Below are positions 11,264 through 19,653 of a stretch of DNA of 63,100 nt, in pieces. Below the pieces are notes generated by a model. That model was given only the letters and a program-made list of their open reading frames with translations, did not search any database and was not told the DNA's origin. Source of the DNA: an uncultured Thermococci archaeon (lineage in GTDB: Archaea; Methanobacteriota_B; Thermococci; Thermococcales; Thermococcaceae). Location of the stretch: positions 1-63,100 of the forward strand of contig CAZAPD010000071.1 in assembly GCA_964487115.1 (NCBI GenBank). Reading direction: 5' to 3'. A program made the translations under genes and the position numbers. Each line of letters starts with the position of its first letter. The stretch's first letter is position 1.

Positions 11264-12466
11264 ATGAAAATTGGAGTGGCTTTTGGGATTAGTGAGCTTG
11301 CAGATCCAAAAGACTTTGAAAAAAAAGCTTCAAAATTTTTAACTCAACTCGCAGGAGAATTTGAGATTAAAGGGGGTTTAATGGTTTCGAAGAGGGATGA
11401 ATCAAGGCGTGAAGAGCTCGATTTTAGGGATGTCGATGTTATCCTCCTTTATCCACTAACAGGGGGAACAGAGAACACTCTTAAGGGATTCTCCTACTTC
11501 AGAAAACCTGTGATTCTCTATGGGGATCCATCCAATAACTCCTTGGCAGCAGGCATAGAGCTCAGAGAGTACTTTCGAGATAGGCTTATACCTTCAACTC
11601 TGGTTAAAAGCCTTGATGAACTTAAAGCAGCTTTATTGGGTTATGAAGATATGAAAGAAATGCTTGAAAAATTCCTGAATTTAAGACTGGGTTTAATCGG
11701 GAGAATATCCCCATGGCTCATAAATGAAAAATTTGAGCTGCCTTACATTCATATAAGCCTGAAAAAGTTCTACGAGTACTACGAGACAACTACAGAAGCA
11801 GAAGGCTGGAAGGCTGTTGAAGAAATAGTAATGAAAGCAATAGATACAAAAGAACCTAAAAGAACCGATCTGGCAAAGGCAGGAAGGATTTATTTAACAT
11901 TAAAGAAAATCGTTGAGGATTATCATCTCGATGGTTTTACAATTGGATGCTTTGATCTGCTTCAAAAGCTCAAAGCTACTCCATGCTTAGCGCTGGCAAT
12001 CTTCAATGCTCAGGGCATTCCAGCAGCATGTGAGGGGGAATTGAATTCCCTCCTTGGAATGGCAATAATAAAAATTTTCTTCAACAAACCTGTATTCATG
12101 GGCAATATAGCGGATTATGGAGAGAATTACATAATACTGGCTCATTGCACTGCTCCATTAACAACGGGCTATGTTCTGAGATCTCACTTTGAAAGTGGCA
12201 TGGGGGTTGGTGTGGAGGTGAAATTACCAAAGGGAAAAGCATCCATTATAAAAATCAAAGGGAGAAAGGCAGTTATAGCAGGAGTTAAGATTATAGAGAG
12301 AGAAAAGAGCGAAAATAGATGCCGTACACAGATCAGGCTTAGAGTTGAAGATGCCAAGGATTTTATAGATGGAACATTGGGCAACCACCACCTGCTGGTC
12401 TACGCAGACAGCGAGGAGATAGCTGACCTGTTAAGTGAGCTTGGCTTTGAAGTTATGCTATATTAG
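11264..12466 (+). CDS. L-fucose/L-arabinose isomerase-like protein
   Basis: GCFDLL, TPCLA, ACEGE, LAHCT and LGNHHLLVY motifs typical of the FucI/AraA-like family. Confidence 0.65.
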   Translation: MKIGVAFGISELADPKDFEKKASKFLTQLAGEFEIKGGLMVSKRDESRREELDFRDVDVILLYPLTGGTENTLKGFSYFRKPVILYGDPSNNSLAAGIELREYFRDRLIPSTLVKSLDELKAALLGYEDMKEMLEKFLNLRLGLIGRISPWLINEKFELPYIHISLKKFYEYYETTTEAEGWKAVEEIVMKAIDTKEPKRTDLAKAGRIYLTLKKIVEDYHLDGFTIGCFDLLQKLKATPCLALAIFNAQGIPAACEGELNSLLGMAIIKIFFNKPVFMGNIADYGENYIILAHCTAPLTTGYVLRSHFESGMGVGVEVKLPKGKASIIKIKGRKAVIAGVKIIEREKSENRCRTQIRLRVEDAKDFIDGTLGNHHLLVYADSEEIADLLSELGFEVMLY

Positions 12467-12557
12467 GTTGTTTTTGTTAACGATTGTGATTTCTAATTTT
12501 TATAATTAATTCCAGCTCGGCAGTTTTCTCGGTTAAAATTGAAAGTAAAAAGGACGA

Positions 12558-14888
12558 TTATGCTGCTGCTGGGGTGTTGCTTCTTCCTTGGTATATATAA
12601 AGTGCTGCCATCGTCACCAAGCCTGCGGCTATGACGAAGTGGTTTAATGTAGCACCCAAAACTCCGAGAGTGACTAAGACAATCCTAAATACTTTAGGAA
12701 CAGCCTTCTTTAAGTGGCCTGTTATACCGACTGCCATCATGTACATTATGAATATCGTTGCGAGGAGGTAGTAAACGACTTTTATAATCATTTCAGGTGT
12801 CCAGTGTTGTACTGTTATAATAAACATCTCAGGATGGGTGAAATATATGTATGGGCCAACATAACCTGCCAATGCATATTTAACAGCATTTATTGCAGTC
12901 TTCCAGAAATCTCCTCCCGCCAAAGCTGAACCTGCATATGCTGCCAAAGCTACTGGTGGAGTTAAATCTGCCAGTATTCCAAAGTAGAACACAAAGAAAT
13001 GAGCTGCCAGTAGTGCAATTGGTGTTGTATATCCCGGGACTGATACAGTGTATATTGGGTTGTTTTGTACTGCAGTATATACTGCAGGAGCAGCTACTAA
13101 TGATGTTATAACATAATTCGCTGTTGTAGGGACACCCATTCCCAAAATTAAGCTGAATATCATTGCCATGATGAGAAGAAGGAACAGACTGCCTCCAGCT
13201 ATATCAACGAGTTTAAAGCCCAAGCTTGTCACCAAGCCCGTCATTGTTAGCACACCTTGAATCAAGCCGGCGCTGGCAGCGGCTAACATCACTGTAGTAC
13301 TGGTTTTACCGGCATCAATCATTGATTGATAAGTTGCTCTGTACATTGTTTTACCGCTTTCGGTCTGCGATTTATATCCGACTATTAAAGAGAATACGAT
13401 TCCAAAAACACCTGTAAGGAGGAGTATCTCCTCCTTTCGCATGTATAGAAGTTTCCCTAAAGCCACCAAGATTATGAACAGTATGCTGATATAGAATTTT
13501 TCATTAAATTCCACCAAGTTTGTTGTGAACCTCAGAACAACAAGGAGAACACCGATTAATAGTATTATGATGCCAATGGGTTTTGATATTGGGGTTGAAC
13601 CTATCATAGTTTCTCTTCCTGTGAACATTAGCAAGGTTGTTGCTAACATTACAGCAACGTACAGTTTTTCATTTCCAGGAATCTCATCCTTTGATATCCA
13701 TGCTACCCATATGGCAACTCCAAGCGATGAAACAGCTGCAATATGAGGTGCTATTCCCCACACTAAAGCCACTGTGATAACTAAGATTGGCAGGAGAATG
13801 TACAGTTTTCTGAGGAAATATCTAATCGGTTTAAAGTGTTCTCTGGGCATTCCTTTTAGGCCTAAACGTTTTGTTTCAAGATCTATAAATAGATAGACTC
13901 CAGAGTAGTATATCAAAGCAGGCAAAACTGCGGCAATGATAAGCTTGTTATACGGAACTCCAAGGAATTGAGCCATAATAAAAGCTGCGGCACCCATAAC
14001 CGGTGGCATTAACTGGCCACCTGTTGAAGCGACAGGCTCAACCGCACCTGCTATTTCCTTGGGATAACCTGCTTTTTTCATCAGAGGTATCGTAAAAGTT
14101 CCAGTTGTTAGAACGTTAGCAACGGAGCTTCCGCTTACCGTTCCCATCATACCACTTGAGATAACAGCGGCCTTAGCAGGACCTCCGGGGCGTGTTCCAA
14201 AGATTGTTATCATAAACTCAGTTATGTAATCGCTTACTCCAATTTTCAAGAGAAATGCTCCAAAGAATACAAATGCAAAGACATAAATTGTCATGACGTA
14301 GAATGGGATTCCAAAAATGCCCTGGTCCAAATAAAGGTACTGGGCAATTCTTGTCCAATTGTAGCCGGCATCTCGAATTCCATAGATTAAGAACACAGTA
14401 ACAATAGTGGGTAGAATCCATCCGATAGTTCGTCTTGTAGCTTCTAAAACCAATAATATCGCAAGGAATCCAAAGATGACATCAGTTTGATTTACATTAT
14501 AATACACCATATATGTGGGCCATCTCCAGAACTTATAGAGAGCCGCTGCAAGTCCGAGGATTATAAGGATATAGTCTATTATCTGAACTTTCTTCAGGTA
14601 TTTTTCTCGTTTCATGATTGGATATCTTAAGAATGCTATGACAAAAATCATGCCCAAGACAAAGGCCATTACCTGCTGATCTTGGAAATCAAGTTTTAGG
14701 AACTCAAGTTTTATGCCCATTTTTTCGAGCAAGGAATACAGAGAAAACGTAAAGTTGAATATGAAGAGTATTTCAAACAGACCAATGAGGATTGCCGCAG
14801 CTTTCACGATGTTCTCAAGCTTTGAAGGTAGGGTCCTTGTAGTCTCTAGCTTTATCTTTTTTTCTATCTTCTCAAGATTTTCTCCCAT
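12558..14888 (-). CDS. TAXI-type TRAP transporter, fused 4TM/12TM permease
   Basis: GGPAKAAVISSGMMGTVSGSSVAN, STGGQLMPPVMGAAAF, GMGVPTTANY and TPPVALAAY motifs. Confidence 0.93.
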   Translation of the reverse strand: MGENLEKIEKKIKLETTRTLPSKLENIVKAAAILIGLFEILFIFNFTFSLYSLLEKMGIKLEFLKLDFQDQQVMAFVLGMIFVIAFLRYPIMKREKYLKKVQIIDYILIILGLAAALYKFWRWPTYMVYYNVNQTDVIFGFLAILLVLEATRRTIGWILPTIVTVFLIYGIRDAGYNWTRIAQYLYLDQGIFGIPFYVMTIYVFAFVFFGAFLLKIGVSDYITEFMITIFGTRPGGPAKAAVISSGMMGTVSGSSVANVLTTGTFTIPLMKKAGYPKEIAGAVEPVASTGGQLMPPVMGAAAFIMAQFLGVPYNKLIIAAVLPALIYYSGVYLFIDLETKRLGLKGMPREHFKPIRYFLRKLYILLPILVITVALVWGIAPHIAAVSSLGVAIWVAWISKDEIPGNEKLYVAVMLATTLLMFTGRETMIGSTPISKPIGIIILLIGVLLVVLRFTTNLVEFNEKFYISILFIILVALGKLLYMRKEEILLLTGVFGIVFSLIVGYKSQTESGKTMYRATYQSMIDAGKTSTTVMLAAASAGLIQGVLTMTGLVTSLGFKLVDIAGGSLFLLLIMAMIFSLILGMGVPTTANYVITSLVAAPAVYTAVQNNPIYTVSVPGYTTPIALLAAHFFVFYFGILADLTPPVALAAYAGSALAGGDFWKTAINAVKYALAGYVGPYIYFTHPEMFIITVQHWTPEMIIKVVYYLLATIFIMYMMAVGITGHLKKAVPKVFRIVLVTLGVLGATLNHFVIAAGLVTMAALYIYQGRSNTPAAA

Positions 14889-14890
14889 CT

Positions 14891-15346
14891 TTAACACCTC
14901 CTAATTAATGTCAGAATTATCGGATCCCTCTTAACACTAATTTTCATTATACCCTCCTCAGGAGGTTGGACAAATATGATTTTACCATCGATTTTTAGGG
15001 TAACATTATTCACGGGAATAAACCAATATTCCCAGGATTTTCCAAGGTATTTGTTCATATTTTTAACATAAAAATCACCAGATCGATATTGAAAATCTAT
15101 GGGCTGTCCAGCGAGGAACTCCTGCCATTTTTCTTGAATGGCATATATCCCGGTACCATTAATTCGATACACATCCACAACCTTAGTTAATGAAACACTG
15201 TGGGTATAGTCCACTTCCAATGTGTATTCTGATGTGAGGGGAAGATAACACACTCTCCCATTAAATCCTATTCTGAGGGTAGAAATCGGGAATAATATGG
15301 CGAGGAATAGCAGTAATAACAATAAAAAAAGAAAAAATTTCTTCAA
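14891..15346 (-). CDS. DUF1850-like protein associated with TAXI transporters
   Basis: N-terminal hydrophobic anchor, YTHSV motif, position between SBP and permease. Confidence 0.75.
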   Translation of the reverse strand: MKKFFLFLLLLLLFLAILFPISTLRIGFNGRVCYLPLTSEYTLEVDYTHSVSLTKVVDVYRINGTGIYAIQEKWQEFLAGQPIDFQYRSGDFYVKNMNKYLGKSWEYWFIPVNNVTLKIDGKIIFVQPPEEGIMKISVKRDPIILTLIRRC

Positions 15347-15360
15347 AAAATTTCACCCCC

Positions 15361-16401
15361 TCACTCTTTGGGCTTGTACTTGTCCGGCACCGTAATGCCC
15401 TGTTCTTCGTAGTATTTGATAGCCCCTGGGTGGAGGGGTATCATAAGTCCATCAAAGGCGTGGTGTATGTCTATCTGGTGTGCAACTTGATGGGCTTTTG
15501 CAAGCTCATCAATGTTCTCATAGAGAATCTTTGTTATTTCATAAACTACATCATTCGGAACATCCTTGTGGACAATCAGTGTTGACTTAACTGCAACTGT
15601 TTGGGCATCTTCCGTCATTCCGTTATAGGTTCCTTTGGGTATGATAACCTTAACGTAGAATGGATATCCCTCGTCATGGAGTTTTTTAATAACATCGTCT
15701 GGAATTGACAGAATTCTCACCGGAACCTTCACAGCTATCTGGTTAACTGCGGGGGCAGGATATGCAATAACTGTGAATTCCGCATCGACCTGCCCAAGAA
15801 CCAAGCTCTGGGAAGCTTCTTCAAAAGTCTGATAAACTTTGTCTATCTTATCCCAGACGCCAGCTGCTTTCAAGACTCTCTCAGCGGTTGCAGCTGTACC
15901 ACTCCCAGCGGCACCAACGACGACTTTCTTACCGGCTAAGTCTTGGAGGCTCTTAATGTTACTGTCAGCTCTTACAACAATCTGAACTGGCTCTGGGTAT
16001 AGTGTTCCTATAGCTCTCAGAACTTTAATTGGTTTTCCTTCAAACTGGAACTTACCTTCCCAGGCATACCATGTGACATCGTTCTGGGCAATTGCAACTT
16101 GGGCTTCTCCGTTTCCAACAGCCTTACAGTTGGCAACACTTGCACCGCTTGTAACAGCTTTGGCTGCAATATCTTTGCTCTTCTTGTTAATTACCTTTGC
16201 AAGCATTGAACCAATGGCAAAATACACACTACCGGGTCCTGAACCGGTATAAATGGTGATTTCCCATTTTCCTTCACTGTTCTTCTGGACAATTGGCTTG
16301 CTTGTGGTTGTGCCACCACTGGTGCCACCGCTGATACACCCTGCTGCAACTATACCTAACAAAACAACAAATACCAAACCAAGGGCTTTCCACTTTCTCA
16401 T
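15361..16401 (-). CDS. TAXI-family TRAP solute-binding lipoprotein
   Basis: Lipobox AAGC plus a G/T/S linker. TSGASVAN, LYPEPVQIVVR, GSGT and IPLHPGAIKYY motifs. Confidence 0.92.
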   Translation of the reverse strand: MRKWKALGLVFVVLLGIVAAGCISGGTSGGTTTSKPIVQKNSEGKWEITIYTGSGPGSVYFAIGSMLAKVINKKSKDIAAKAVTSGASVANCKAVGNGEAQVAIAQNDVTWYAWEGKFQFEGKPIKVLRAIGTLYPEPVQIVVRADSNIKSLQDLAGKKVVVGAAGSGTAATAERVLKAAGVWDKIDKVYQTFEEASQSLVLGQVDAEFTVIAYPAPAVNQIAVKVPVRILSIPDDVIKKLHDEGYPFYVKVIIPKGTYNGMTEDAQTVAVKSTLIVHKDVPNDVVYEITKILYENIDELAKAHQVAHQIDIHHAFDGLMIPLHPGAIKYYEEQGITVPDKYKPKE

Positions 16402-16550
16402 TTTTATTCACCTCATGTAGGGAGGGGGCAGAACCCCCTTAGAGCATATGCCTCCTAAATATTTGTAAAGTCATCAATTATATATTTTTTGGCCAGTTGG
16501 AAGATTTACAGAGTAGTAAATAATATAAAGTGTGGAAAGGCGAAGATTCT

Positions 16551-18464
16551 TCAGTAATAGTACCAGATGGTCCAGTAGTCATTGATGTCTTCTCCAAGGC
16601 TCTCAAGATATTCAAGATACTCCTTAATCGGAACATCTGGATAAGTATAAAGCTTGGTTTCTCCAATACCTTTCTCCCAAGGATGCATCAAGTATATCCT
16701 GCTCCCATCAGGTCTAATACCCACAAGCTCCCTGTCCTGCCATGCCCTGAGATGATTCTTACCCATTCTGGGCACATTGAAAACGGGTTCATCTGGTCTG
16801 AATTGGCCGGGTAGTAATCTCGCCTCTTCTTTTCTCTCCTGTACAACTCTGGCTATCGGAACAAGATAATCCTTCTGCTCAATTTTGCCTTTTGGATAGA
16901 AGGTATAATATGGATCAATGCCGACTTTCTTCAATGCTATCCTAAGAGCAACGTTTTCAAATCTTCTACTAACGTTCCTCTGGTAAACAAGCTGGTTGTA
17001 AATATAAATGCCCTGTTTTCTTATCTTATATGCGGCTTCGGCCATTTCAGGTGTTACTTCATATGCGCTTTCAACGTGTGTTGAAATTGAAACATTTCTC
17101 TTTCCGGGATCAATGTATGAACCTAATATCTCAGCAAGACTGTCGGTAATTCTCATTGGGACTGTTACAAATATTCTGCTGCCCCATCTAATGTTAACAA
17201 CATGATCCATTTCAGCAAATTTGGCCATGATTTTGTCGATTATCTTATCACTCAGTGCTAATGGGTCACCTCCTGTGATGAGGACATCCATCATTGAATC
17301 GTGCTCGGCAAACCATTCTAATGCTTTTTCAATGGTATCCCATCCCGGGAATGAGCCGGCCATGAATGGCTCAAGGACCTCCCAATTTCTCTGGCAATAA
17401 ACGCATATCTGGGGGCAGGTATCGTAAGCCTTGAGGATTGCAATCGTTACATATCTCCTTGTAACAAGATCTATGGGGGAGGTATCATGTTCTCCCATGA
17501 AATCGAAGTAATATTCTCTATCTTCCTTATGCTGAATCATGTTGCTGACATACCATGTCGGAGGCATTACCTGTCTTCTTACCTGAAGGTCATATTTGTA
17601 TGGCTCTTCGAAATCCCAGAGGTGGAGATAATATGGCGTTATTCCCCATGGAATGTGATACTTAACTGCAATCTCTACCTGCTCTAAATCTTCTTCTGGT
17701 GTTTTCACAATACCAAGCTCATTAAGCTCCCTCAGAGTCTCCAGGCCCTTTTCTCTCTTTAGAACATGTGAGAACTGCCATCTGTAGTCAAACCATTCAT
17801 CTTCAGTTATCCCAAAGTACTCCATGAGCTGCTCTCTCTGTTTCTTTCTTTTTTCGATGATTCCTTTATCAAGACCAGTCGGATAGCGTTTGAGATACCC
17901 CCTAATATAGTCCCACTCTTTGTCGAGATATTCTGAACGCGCAAGTGCGGCTTTTCTTCCTTTGATCTTACTGAAATCAACAAACTTTATACCTGCCGCT
18001 TCTAATTTTGGACCCAGCCATCCTTTTGAATATGCACTCTTACCTGCCATGGCTTTAAATAGATGCCTGAACTCCTCTACAAAGCCTTCAGTGATTATTC
18101 CAAGGACTCTCTTATCCCCTTTTGTAGCCTTCCAGAGATATTCAAGGGTTGAAAATCCTGCAGCGTTTTCTCCGTATTGAGAAATTATGTTAAGGAATAC
18201 TCCAATTGCTTCTATTGCGAGCCATCTATCGATAGGATCAACTTGAATTTCTCCGCTTTTAAATTTCCATTGAAGGTTTTCACTAAAGCTCGCCAGTTTT
18301 TCTCTGGCTTCTTCAAGAGTTTCACTGTTGAGCAGGATTTCTTTGATTTCTGGAAGAGAATCAAATATCTTTAAAAATTCTTCATATCCAACTCCCTGTT
18401 TCAGACCCCAGGGAGATTCTTCAATATTGAAAGTTGAAATAGCACTTTCCATCTGTTTTTCCAT
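16551..18464 (-). CDS. Long KamA-family radical SAM/PLP 2,3-aminomutase, probably acting on glutamate or another acidic amino acid
   Basis: CPQICVYC radical SAM motif, LVTRRY, LITGGDPL, PYYTFYPK and PVFNVPRMGK. About 200-aa N-terminal extension. Confidence 0.85.
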   Translation of the reverse strand: MEKQMESAISTFNIEESPWGLKQGVGYEEFLKIFDSLPEIKEILLNSETLEEAREKLASFSENLQWKFKSGEIQVDPIDRWLAIEAIGVFLNIISQYGENAAGFSTLEYLWKATKGDKRVLGIITEGFVEEFRHLFKAMAGKSAYSKGWLGPKLEAAGIKFVDFSKIKGRKAALARSEYLDKEWDYIRGYLKRYPTGLDKGIIEKRKKQREQLMEYFGITEDEWFDYRWQFSHVLKREKGLETLRELNELGIVKTPEEDLEQVEIAVKYHIPWGITPYYLHLWDFEEPYKYDLQVRRQVMPPTWYVSNMIQHKEDREYYFDFMGEHDTSPIDLVTRRYVTIAILKAYDTCPQICVYCQRNWEVLEPFMAGSFPGWDTIEKALEWFAEHDSMMDVLITGGDPLALSDKIIDKIMAKFAEMDHVVNIRWGSRIFVTVPMRITDSLAEILGSYIDPGKRNVSISTHVESAYEVTPEMAEAAYKIRKQGIYIYNQLVYQRNVSRRFENVALRIALKKVGIDPYYTFYPKGKIEQKDYLVPIARVVQERKEEARLLPGQFRPDEPVFNVPRMGKNHLRAWQDRELVGIRPDGSRIYLMHPWEKGIGETKLYTYPDVPIKEYLEYLESLGEDINDYWTIWYYY

Positions 18465-18476
18465 ATTTACACCTCC

Positions 18477-18542
18477 ATGCCCTTATATGGGCATTGCAAC
18501 CTCTCAGGACATTACTGTACTTCTTCCATCATTGAGGCTGCA
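18477..18542 (-). promoter_or_regulatory. Structured 5' leader with a C/D-type kink-turn and an RBS-adjacent hairpin
   Basis: Minus strand TGCAGCCTC-AAT-GATGGA...TCCTGA-GAGGTTGCA, followed by ATGCCC-ATATAA-GGGCAT abutting RBS GGAGGTG. Confidence 0.6.
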
Positions 18543-18834
18543 TTACACTTTTTAGTGAATAGCAATGGTGTTATATATTTTGCTTTTACATGGAAGTAAA
18601 ACCTTACAAATTTCAAAATTTGATAGAAAAATAGCGAAAAATTTTACATATTCTGCAATTTAATTCGAAACCTTTGCTAAATTAATACTTAACCTATGCA
18701 TCATCACGAAGATTTAACTTTTCAAATATAAACATTAGCTTTATGTTAGACAAATCTAACAACTTAAAAGATTGCCGCATCTAAACACAAGACTTTTTAA
18801 TGGCTTCTGTTCGCATTCTATTCGAGGTGTTAAA

Positions 18835-19653
18835 GTGAAAATCATAATGACCACAAAGGTTGACCTTGCATCCATGAATATAAAGGAGAAACTTGTAGAG
18901 AACTTTGGATTCAGGGAATTTGGAACGTTATTTGACAATAATCCAGTATATTACAAAGATAACATGCTCATACTCACTACCAACGAAGAAATGATATACT
19001 ACGATAACCTTGATGAGAGTATAGGAAAACAACTCGGAGTTAGGCCTGAGATAATTGTGTTTGCCTCACGACATTCCAGCAAACAAAAAATGCCCACACT
19101 AACGACTCATGTAACAGGAAACTGGGGAAAGGCAATGTATGGTGGAAAAGATGAAAATCTTGCAGTAGCACAGCCGAATGCTATGAAGCTTGCTCTGTTG
19201 AAACTTAATGAGCTCAACGATCTTGGATGGACGGTTTGTTATGAAGCGACACATCATGGTCCGAGCGAGCTTGAGGTTCCTTCTCTCTTCATTGAAATAG
19301 GGTCAAGTGAAGAGGAATGGGCAAACACAAGGGCAGGGGACGTAGTAGCTGAGACGATAATTTATGTTCTCAACACATATCAGAAAGTCAGATTTGAGGT
19401 GGCAATAGGGATTGGGGGAGGACATTATGCACCGAAGCAGACAAAAAGGGCACTTGAGGGGGATATAGCATTTTCACATATAGCTCCAAAATATACCCAC
19501 CCTATCTCAAGAACGATGCTTCTAAAAGCAATCGAAAGAACCGATGGAAAAGTTGATGCTGTATATGTTGATTGGAAGGGTAGCAAGGGAGAAACTCGTC
19601 AAATGGCAAAGGCATTTGCCCAAGAACTTGGACTGGAATTCATAAAGGACTAA
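18835..19653 (+). CDS. dtdA: D-aminoacyl-tRNA deacylase (DTD2)
   Basis: SRHSS, THVTGN, EATHHGP, FIEIGS and GGGHY motifs. GTG start after RBS GAGGTG. Confidence 0.93.

Follow-up and report, generated by a model that had tools for sequence, protein, structure and literature searches.

The DNA analysed here (the window) is a stretch of 63,100 nucleotides (nt) from an uncultured Thermococci archaeon (assembly GCA_964487115.1, contig CAZAPD010000071.1). Its listing of open reading frames (ORFs) gave four co-oriented ORFs at positions 12558–18464 of the minus strand, which encode a long-form radical S-adenosylmethionine (SAM) aminomutase of the KamA family followed by the components of a TAXI-type TRAP transporter. 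We describe the enzyme as a candidate glutamate 2,3-aminomutase and consider how it may be related to the importer encoded behind it. The genes, together with the additional N-terminal part of the enzyme, are as follows.

16551..18464, minus strand: KamA-family radical-SAM/pyridoxal 5'-phosphate (PLP) aminomutase, long form, 637 amino acids (PF04055 and TIGR00238)
17820..18464, minus strand: N-terminal extension of this enzyme, about 210–215 residues, all-helical as modelled (the match to the KamA model begins with residue 212)
15361..16401, minus strand: TAXI-family TRAP solute-binding protein, 346 amino acids, with a lipoprotein-like signal up to Cys22 (TIGR02122)
14891..15346, minus strand: DUF1850 protein, 151 amino acids, with an N-terminal membrane helix (PF08905)
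12558..14897, minus strand: fused DctQ-DctM type TRAP permease, 779 amino acids (TIGR02123)

An earlier note on this DNA had read a 637-residue radical SAM gene followed on the same strand by a TAXI gene, a DUF1850-like gene and a fused permease gene, and both the coordinates and the profile scores bore this out. Residues 212–568 of the aminomutase matched the KamA family model TIGR00238 with 382.9 bits (cut-off, 199.2), and the protein also matched Radical_SAM (PF04055). The TAXI binding protein (TIGR02122, 318.7 bits; cut-off, 84.35) and the fused DctQM permease (TIGR02123, 564.9 bits; cut-off, 320.65) both exceeded the curated cut-offs, indicating a TAXI-type TRAP transporter. The 151-residue protein matched DUF1850 (PF08905, 34.3 bits; cut-off, 27), whose gene was the customary middle member of such TAXI operons at related loci. 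The aminomutase gene lies upstream of the TAXI gene on the same strand, with a gap of 149 nt, and a genome search found it to be the only KamA-family gene in the 2.06-Mb genome (385 bits).

Exactly three cysteines, C350, C354 and C357, occur in the 637-residue protein. They form a CX3CX2C motif within CPQICVYCQR, and the translation also contains the motifs PYYTFYPK and PVFNVP. When the protein was compared with PDB by phmmer, lysine 2,3-aminomutase (LAM) 2a5h was the only match (E 7.5e-29), with K525 placed opposite D293 of LAM. D293 and D330 of LAM are the two aspartates that bind the epsilon-amino group of lysine. The corresponding positions were compared in a MAFFT alignment of 34 sequences comprising 16 long-form proteins, 10 glutamate 2,3-aminomutase (Eam)-type proteins and 8 shorter KamA (LAM-type) proteins; the ten Eam-type sequences came from Clostridia genomes, six scoring above the cut-off of TIGR04368 and four slightly below it. 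CQR, PYYTFYPK and PVFNVP were present in 16/16 long forms, with Lys at the column of LAM D293 and Asn at the column of the Asp of FVVDAP. The Eam-type rows showed CQR in 10/10, Lys in 9/10 and Asn in 10/10, and the LAM-type rows showed CTR in 7/8 and Asp/Asp in 7/8. The Lys/Asn pattern with CQR, which the earlier note had pointed out as resembling the glutamate enzyme, was thus found as K525 and N563 throughout the long forms, and the two specificity sites read Lys/Asn, not Asp/Asp.

In a 37-sequence long-form alignment, C350, C354, C357, R359, K525, N563 and K569 were invariant. R359 shares its column with the carboxylate-binding Arg of LAM, and K569 shares the column of the GGGK lysine of the LAM-type rows, which we take to be the PLP-binding lysine. 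Among the NCBIfam equivalog models, Glu_2_3_NH3_mut (TIGR04368) scored best with the 637-residue protein (189.9 bits), followed by AblA (137.2 bits), the arginine enzyme (124.2 bits) and EpmB (100.7 bits). The protein fell far short of the lysine 2,3-aminomutase model (TIGR03820, 137.2 bits; cut-off, 525.4), and K525 and N563 replace both aspartates. Because the Lys/Asn/CQR signature occurs in a KamA-family protein, the long-form aminomutase is likely, judging from these residues, to interconvert L-glutamate and beta-glutamate.

Foldseek analysis of the AlphaFold model gave LAM 2a5h as the only strong PDB match (E 6e-16; template modelling (TM) score 0.69, target-normalised), with an identity of 23–24% over the aligned fold. 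Since LAM was the only strong match by both sequence and fold, the same radical-SAM/PLP chemistry would be expected. The AlphaFold 2 (AF2) model of the whole protein had a predicted local distance difference test score (pLDDT) of 84.5, and the active-site loop 551–576, which bears N563 and K569, was below 50. LAM has a Zn site in its C-terminal domain; because the window protein contains only three cysteines, a LAM-like Zn site is impossible. The C-terminus of the long forms ends in an invariant aromatic tail (I633, W634, Y636 and Y637 in 37/37 sequences; window 16551–16571), which is without counterpart in LAM and Eam.

The N-terminal domain of about 200 residues, for which the earlier note had no explanation, was confirmed as an extension: the KamA match begins at residue 212, and residue 11 of LAM aligned with residue 218 of the window protein. 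AF2 models of the whole protein and of residues 1–252 (pLDDT 84.9) placed helices over roughly residues 27–249. The modelled domain was all-helical; it had no match in PDB by Foldseek at E≤0.001 (the best, at E 0.83, were generic helical bundles) and none among the Pfam and NCBIfam profiles. For this domain the protein Atlas pointed to clusters that carry DUF8427 (score, 0.81); by the calibration of the tool, this is a lead only. In 36 long-form sequences, R54, E99, R176, S177, G197, W224 and W229 were invariant, and E131 and R206 were likewise invariant in the family. The charged residues among those invariant suggest that the N-terminal domain may contribute to assembly or to an active-site lid, substituting for the C-terminal domain that binds Zn in LAM and that the window protein lacks.

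The best solved relatives of the TAXI protein were the Glu/Gln-binding protein of Thermus thermophilus (TtGluBP, 1us4; E 9e-58) and VcGluP of Vibrio cholerae (8s4j; E 1.9e-46). We took the ligand-contact residues from the binding-site data given in the VcGluP paper (PMC11574862). The window protein keeps the equivalents of VcGluP S40, V44, Y45, S75, Q93 and E125, and at VcGluP Y46, H123 and D157 it reads F, Y and T, as does TtGluBP. A passage of the VcGluP paper gives Y45 in 78% and Q93 in 54% of TAXI sequences (PMC11574862); being common among TAXI proteins, these two residues therefore do not define glutamate binders. A glutamate-like amino acid is a plausible ligand of the window protein on the basis of these comparisons. 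In two genomes, the TAXI gene of the corresponding cassette contains one in-frame TGA (G251:C3:94183-95208 and G193:C110:1356511-1357542), which could reflect decay, sequencing error or recoding.

To follow the enzyme and the binding protein among relatives, 97 Thermococcaceae genomes were searched for both. The aminomutase was found in 25/97 and the TAXI protein in 76/97. In 21 genomes the enzyme was of the 85–100% identity type (the cassette type); 20 of these 21 carried a 78–100% identical TAXI gene 120–170 nt downstream, and in the remaining genome the enzyme gene lay at a contig end. The cassette-type TAXI protein was the sole TAXI protein of those genomes. The genes were thus adjacent, not unlinked, in 20/21 genomes of this type. 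A second type of enzyme, at 77%, was present alone in four genomes and as a second copy in a fifth, and the TAXI gene was elsewhere in all of them. In one genome (G181; L102 4469-10118), the 77%-type gene, of the Thermococcus onnurineus kind, stands before pyrH and after four genes resembling those of an L-proline dehydrogenase complex (soxA-like, ferredoxin-like, small subunit and soxB-like). This position may provide a further link to glutamate, and we counted it for the preferred reading set out below.

A palindrome and a box resembling the transcription factor B recognition element (BRE) and TATA box precede both the aminomutase gene and the TAXI gene, the palindrome being upstream of the box in each case.

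18585..18600, no strand assigned: palindrome TTTACTTCCATGTAAA (minus-strand reading), upstream of the aminomutase gene, 3 nt before the TATA-like box
18571..18581, minus strand: BRE/TATA-like box AAAATATATAA of the aminomutase gene
16505..16520, no strand assigned: second copy of the palindrome, TTTACTACTCTGTAAA (minus-strand reading), in the gap between the aminomutase and TAXI genes, pattern TTTAC-N6-GTAAA
16478..16488, minus strand: BRE/TATA-like box AAAATATATAA of the TAXI operon, conserved with enzyme-less genomes

The exact pattern TTTAC-N6-GTAAA occurred twice in the window (0.08 expected), a number reached in 0/100 shuffles. In the whole genome there were 5 exact sites as compared with 9 for the reversed-pattern control, and because this count is no higher than that of the control, the argument rests on the positions of the sites and not on their number. 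All distinct cassette genomes compared (16/16) had a match to the relaxed pattern TTTA[CT]-N6-[GA]TAAA at −135 to −142 relative to the start of the aminomutase gene; among them the arms of the palindrome were conserved and its spacer varied. Loci from the two data sets were judged to be of the same genome by matching contig coordinates. The relaxed pattern was also present upstream of the TAXI gene in 10/14 cassette genomes and upstream of the resident TAXI gene, with no aminomutase beside it, in 3/4 genomes examined. It was absent upstream of the 77%-type enzyme in 2/2 rows, both from one genome (G181). Since the same palindrome stands at both promoters, we infer from these sites that one transcription factor may control the aminomutase and TAXI units.

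A third exact palindrome (G000:C126:12196-12211; L119 1997-2012) precedes the gene for an SBP_bac_1 binding protein and is followed, after about 37 nt, by a TATA-like box, and this gene may be an additional member of the same regulon; the other two genomic sites look like chance. In the TAXI leader, a hairpin, GGGGG-TTCTG-CCCCC (16424–16438, minus strand), follows the TATA-like box and precedes the ribosome-binding site. G/C-rich stretches of non-conserved sequence occur at this site in related cassettes, and the hairpin had no Rfam match. No Rfam family matched positions 12000–19000 at E≤1. A sigma-70/terminator scan gave nothing above shuffles, its models being bacterial and unsuited to an archaeon.

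We tentatively favour a reading, possible rather than probable, in which aminomutase and importer are under common control and imported glutamate is the source of beta-glutamate, made as a solute. One factor would switch on the aminomutase and TAXI-TRAP units together. Glutamate, or a compound closely resembling it, would enter through the TAXI-TRAP system, and part of it would be rearranged to beta-glutamate by the aminomutase: reductive cleavage of SAM would give a 5'-deoxyadenosyl radical, a radical would form on the PLP-bound substrate, and a 1,2-amino shift would follow. Beta-glutamate would accumulate as an anionic compatible solute, because the highly active glutamate catabolism of peptide fermenters cannot use it.

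Several observations weigh against this reading, and they concern the enzyme, the ligand of the importer and the link between the two. With regard to the enzyme, the protein missed the cut-off of the Eam equivalog (TIGR04368, 189.9 bits versus 650), and in a maximum-likelihood tree the long-form clade was separated from Eam and LAM by a branch of 3.22 substitutions/site (support 100/100). For these two reasons the Lys/Asn signature is the sole argument for specificity. Of the earlier proposal that the enzyme resembles clostridial glutamate 2,3-aminomutase, the residue signature therefore stood and membership of the equivalog did not. In an Alkaliphilus metagenome-assembled genome (MAG; G001), a long-form gene with TAXI genes behind it coexists with a true Eam, which at 694 bits exceeds the cut-off; the KamA loci of this genome are C196:2319-3530 and C219:288-1436, and the two forms may not be redundant.

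These features could also mean that the substrate is a different amino acid of the acidic or amide kind, either free or bound, and that the Lys/Asn match to Eam is convergent or ancestral. Besides the long branch and the coexistence with a true Eam, the long forms replace motifs conserved in Eam and LAM (CVYC for CRHC, RNW for RRR, and LPGxFR, with invariant R556, for HTSG), they possess the additional N-terminal domain and the invariant aromatic tail, and their linked importers differ in the binding sites. Nevertheless, R359, the PLP lysine and the Lys/Asn pair are all invariant, and aspartate is excluded because a 2,3 shift would only regenerate aspartate. By its title, moreover, a 2022 paper concerns a glutamate 2,3-aminomutase of methanogenic archaea that makes a beta-amino acid for salt tolerance (Tunckanat et al. 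2022, Biochemistry 61:1077–1090), that is, a glutamate enzyme in archaea. We regard a different substrate as improbable.

With regard to the ligand, VcGluP Y200, M201 (Thr187 in TtGluBP) and G203 read T, V and A in the window TAXI protein, so that its binding site has neither the second Tyr nor the Thr/Met found in the glutamate binders. Furthermore, most of the aminomutase-linked TAXI proteins of Atribacterota swap both amino-group ligands (Q93 to M and E125 to A), and such differences among equally linked importers call for caution in naming a ligand firmly. The earlier suggestion of glutamate uptake is consistent with a closest solved relative of the TAXI protein that binds Glu/Gln, and the match of contact residues was only partial.

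With regard to the link, the site itself has a history. The cassette is flanked by genes for a PIN_5 'RNA ligase partner', a 400-residue AraA-like protein on the opposite strand, an archaeal D-aminoacyl-tRNA deacylase and FtsZ; rpoB/rpoH and genes for ribosomal proteins lie at a greater distance. As had been noted before, none of these neighbours of the aminomutase locus is a lysine-fermentation or ablB-like gene. The AraA-like protein (11264–12466, plus strand) has a weak likeness to L-arabinose/sulfoquinovose isomerases (PF24856, 1.4e-4; NF048012, 38.5 bits versus 700) and adjoins the TRAP permease across Thermococcaceae with and without the aminomutase (72–77% identity). A foreign island was rejected as an explanation of the locus, since no GC anomaly was seen. 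Judged by related loci, the window belongs to Thermococcus, and its DNA occurs in metagenome runs from hydrothermal vents.

Four other genomes, three lacking the enzyme and one having its unlinked type, carry the TAXI-DUF1850-permease operon at the identical site between the AraA-like and deacylase genes. Because the operon holds this site without the enzyme, we conclude that the aminomutase was inserted between the TAXI and deacylase genes, and that the TAXI-TRAP operon is a resident Thermococcaceae locus that is not dedicated to the aminomutase. In addition, the promoter block in the aminomutase-TAXI gap aligns with the deacylase-TAXI spacer of the enzyme-less genomes, from which it follows that the TAXI operon kept its own promoter. 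The adjacency could therefore be historical, the operon being resident and having a promoter of its own in those genomes. The earlier claim that a linked importer feeds the enzyme thus retained its adjacency in 20/21 cassette-type genomes and lost the idea of a dedicated operon; the 77% type of the enzyme was unlinked.

The same data are consistent with an absence of functional coupling, in which the enzyme likely uses the cell's own glutamate, having landed beside a general amino-acid TAXI-TRAP operon and copied its promoter. The TAXI protein is present in 76/97 genomes versus 25/97 for the enzyme, the enzyme-less genomes have the operon at the same locus with the same promoter block, and linkage is lacking for the 77%-type enzyme of four genomes and for the second copy of a fifth. 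Among 80 related loci examined for importers within 5 kb, 28 had a TAXI-TRAP system, 12 a LivJ-type ATP-binding cassette (ABC) importer, 3 an SBP_bac_5 importer and 36 none (about ten of these having very short flanks); 1 was not analysable. However, pairing with three unrelated importer families recurs across phyla, and the operator arms are kept upstream of the enzyme in 16/16 genomes.

A further point against an uncoupled enzyme came from the relatives of the TAXI protein. Its nearest homologues beyond Thermococcus were in two Atribacterota MAGs, at 73–74% identity, and were nested in the cassette-type clade (support 0.98), whereas the aminomutase of these two MAGs was 67–71% identical to those of other Atribacterota and 59–60% identical to that of the window. 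Because a Thermococcus-type TAXI protein stands beside an Atribacterota-type aminomutase, we conclude that the importer module was replaced behind the enzyme on at least one occasion. At these loci (L013 and L014), TAXI, DUF1850 and permease proteins were 73–74%, 48–53% and 71% identical to those of the window and the promoter looked bacterial; the importer alone was exchanged across domains. We consider the lack of any functional coupling unlikely.

The proposed synthesis and the type of importer also have to be set against a reversed direction of the reaction. In beta-glutamate salvage, the importer would take up the osmolyte of neighbours, such as vent methanogens, and the aminomutase would run in reverse to L-glutamate, which would enter catabolism by glutamate dehydrogenase and 2-oxoglutarate:ferredoxin oxidoreductase; we hold this route to be rather unlikely. 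Catabolic modules typically combine an importer with a first isomerase under one shared operator, and the bacterial genes are flanked by repressor-type regulators and importers. The Atribacterota loci have the order RpiR-aminomutase-TAXI-DUF1850-permease, followed by GntR, ferredoxin, 2-oxoacid:ferredoxin oxidoreductase, acetate kinase and Nfn-like genes, and the best match of the oxidoreductase beta subunit was of the 2-oxoglutarate type. This downstream cluster may, however, form an operon of its own. In Anaerolineae the order is IclR-aminomutase-(C45 hydrolase, FGE-like)-LivJ-type importer-CBS/ACT.

No importer was found at the aminomutase gene in the Ignicoccus and Pyrodictiaceae loci, and Methanocaldococcus likewise lacks one at the gene. 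Methanocaldococcus and Ignicoccus are autotrophs, and a division into producers and consumers would fit this distribution. A glutamate-rich cell, moreover, needs no special importer for making beta-glutamate. The cassette TAXI type is also distinct: binding proteins of the cassette and resident types were 57–61% identical, permeases 66–68% and DUF1850 proteins 36–40%, as compared with 71–91% for the flanking genes. A change of ligand is not evident, however, since the contact residues of the two Thermococcus types differ at only two sites (T210 for I and A213 for G), and the cassette-type TAXI protein is the sole one in its genomes. The only physiological role reported, by the title of the 2022 paper (Tunckanat et al. 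2022), is synthesis. A wider version, which we consider similarly unlikely, is that vent and deep-subsurface heterotrophs feed on leaked beta-glutamate via a specialised TAXI-TRAP or ABC importer and the reversed aminomutase, the Thermococcus units sharing one operator factor and the same family acting as producer in autotrophs and as consumer entry in fermenters.

For the synthesis of beta-glutamate from imported glutamate, which we continue to favour, a further difficulty is that, to our knowledge, beta-glutamate has not been reported in the genus Thermococcus. The family itself is widespread. Full-length relatives with 55–90% identity were found in Thermococcus, Geoglobus, Methanocaldococcus, Atribacterota, Synergistetes, Anaerolineales and others, and when 1.84 billion representatives were searched, 96 clusters (50% identity) matched at E≤1e-30; the members that carry names come from Thermococcus, Geoglobus, Methanocaldococcus, Ignicoccus, Atribacterota, Anaerolineae and Bipolaricaulota. 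The Methanocaldococcus orthologues were 64% identical to the 637-residue protein, and Methanocaldococcus species are marine hyperthermophiles. The public labels seen for long-form proteins were KamA family, hypothetical or uncharacterised, or lysine 2,3-aminomutase. A role of the EF-P type, suggested by analogy with EpmB and by a gene for elongation factor 2 (EF-2) beside Thermoplasmata loci, was dropped, as the EF-2 gene lies on the opposite strand and at 2 loci only.

The idea of such an enzyme is probably already in print, as the title of the 2022 paper suggests, and a 2026 preprint, where it cites that paper, describes glutamate 2,3-aminomutase as present in archaea for production of the osmolyte beta-glutamate. 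The best 120 matches contained no Methanococcus protein, whether the query was the window protein or its Methanocaldococcus orthologue, and with the latter as query Methanocaldococcus were the only methanogens among them; no named Methanococcus occurred in 133 Thermococci-type genomes or in two look-ups of 20 cluster representatives. One 557-residue Atlas cluster is labelled Methanobacteriota, which is not decisive for Methanococcus orthology. In addition, the beta-glutamate passage of a 2005 review (PMC1224877), which names M. jannaschii only among Methanocaldococcus, states that early nuclear magnetic resonance (NMR) work excluded an aminomutase route to beta-glutamate in methanogens, and it proposed a hydroxyglutaryl-CoA route. 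The 2022 title overrides the review on this point, yet the point was once contested. We found no paper that treats a KamA aminomutase and a TRAP importer as a module, with supplements and subscription journals outside the search. New here are the history of the resident locus, the exchange of the importer module, the shared operator and a tally of the importer types in different phyla.

Among marine methanogens, beta-glutamate is a classic osmolyte; its enzymology has only recently been settled, and the long-form family extends far beyond methanogens. If the pairing with importers is functional, it would represent a testable module by which heterotrophic anaerobes either trap imported glutamate as a solute that they cannot metabolise or reuse an osmolyte made by a neighbour. 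TTTAC-N6-GTAAA is a candidate operator for tracing an archaeal regulator, and the practical gain is a corrected annotation of long-form KamA proteins and a short list of cultured carriers, which by source name include Thermococcus thioreducens, T. atlanticus and T. thermotolerans.

The known systems can be compared with the window genes as follows. Eam (TIGR04368), for which the Clostridioides difficile enzyme of Ruzicka and Frey (2007) is reportedly an example, has in common with the window protein CX3CX2C followed by QR, Lys/Asn at the positions of the LAM aspartates and the PLP lysine. The window protein differs in having about 210 additional N-terminal residues, no C-terminal Cys cluster, and altered cluster and PLP-loop motifs. 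LAM of Clostridium subterminale (2a5h) is the closest solved relative by sequence and fold, with Asp/Asp where the window protein has Lys/Asn. TtGluBP (1us4/1us5) and VcGluP (8s4j) belong to the same TAXI family as the window binding protein, which retains the counterparts of Y45, S75, Q93 and E125. The methanogen enzyme of Tunckanat and colleagues is said to come from Methanococcus maripaludis C7 and to carry an N-terminal extension of about 160 residues, as compared with about 210 in the window protein; its function was reportedly predicted from substrate-binding residues and then confirmed by expression in a methanogen. This glutamate 2,3-aminomutase (Tunckanat et al. 2022) is likewise an archaeal KamA-family radical-SAM enzyme, whereas the window gene belongs to a heterotroph and is paired with a TAXI-TRAP importer, apparently under common regulation.

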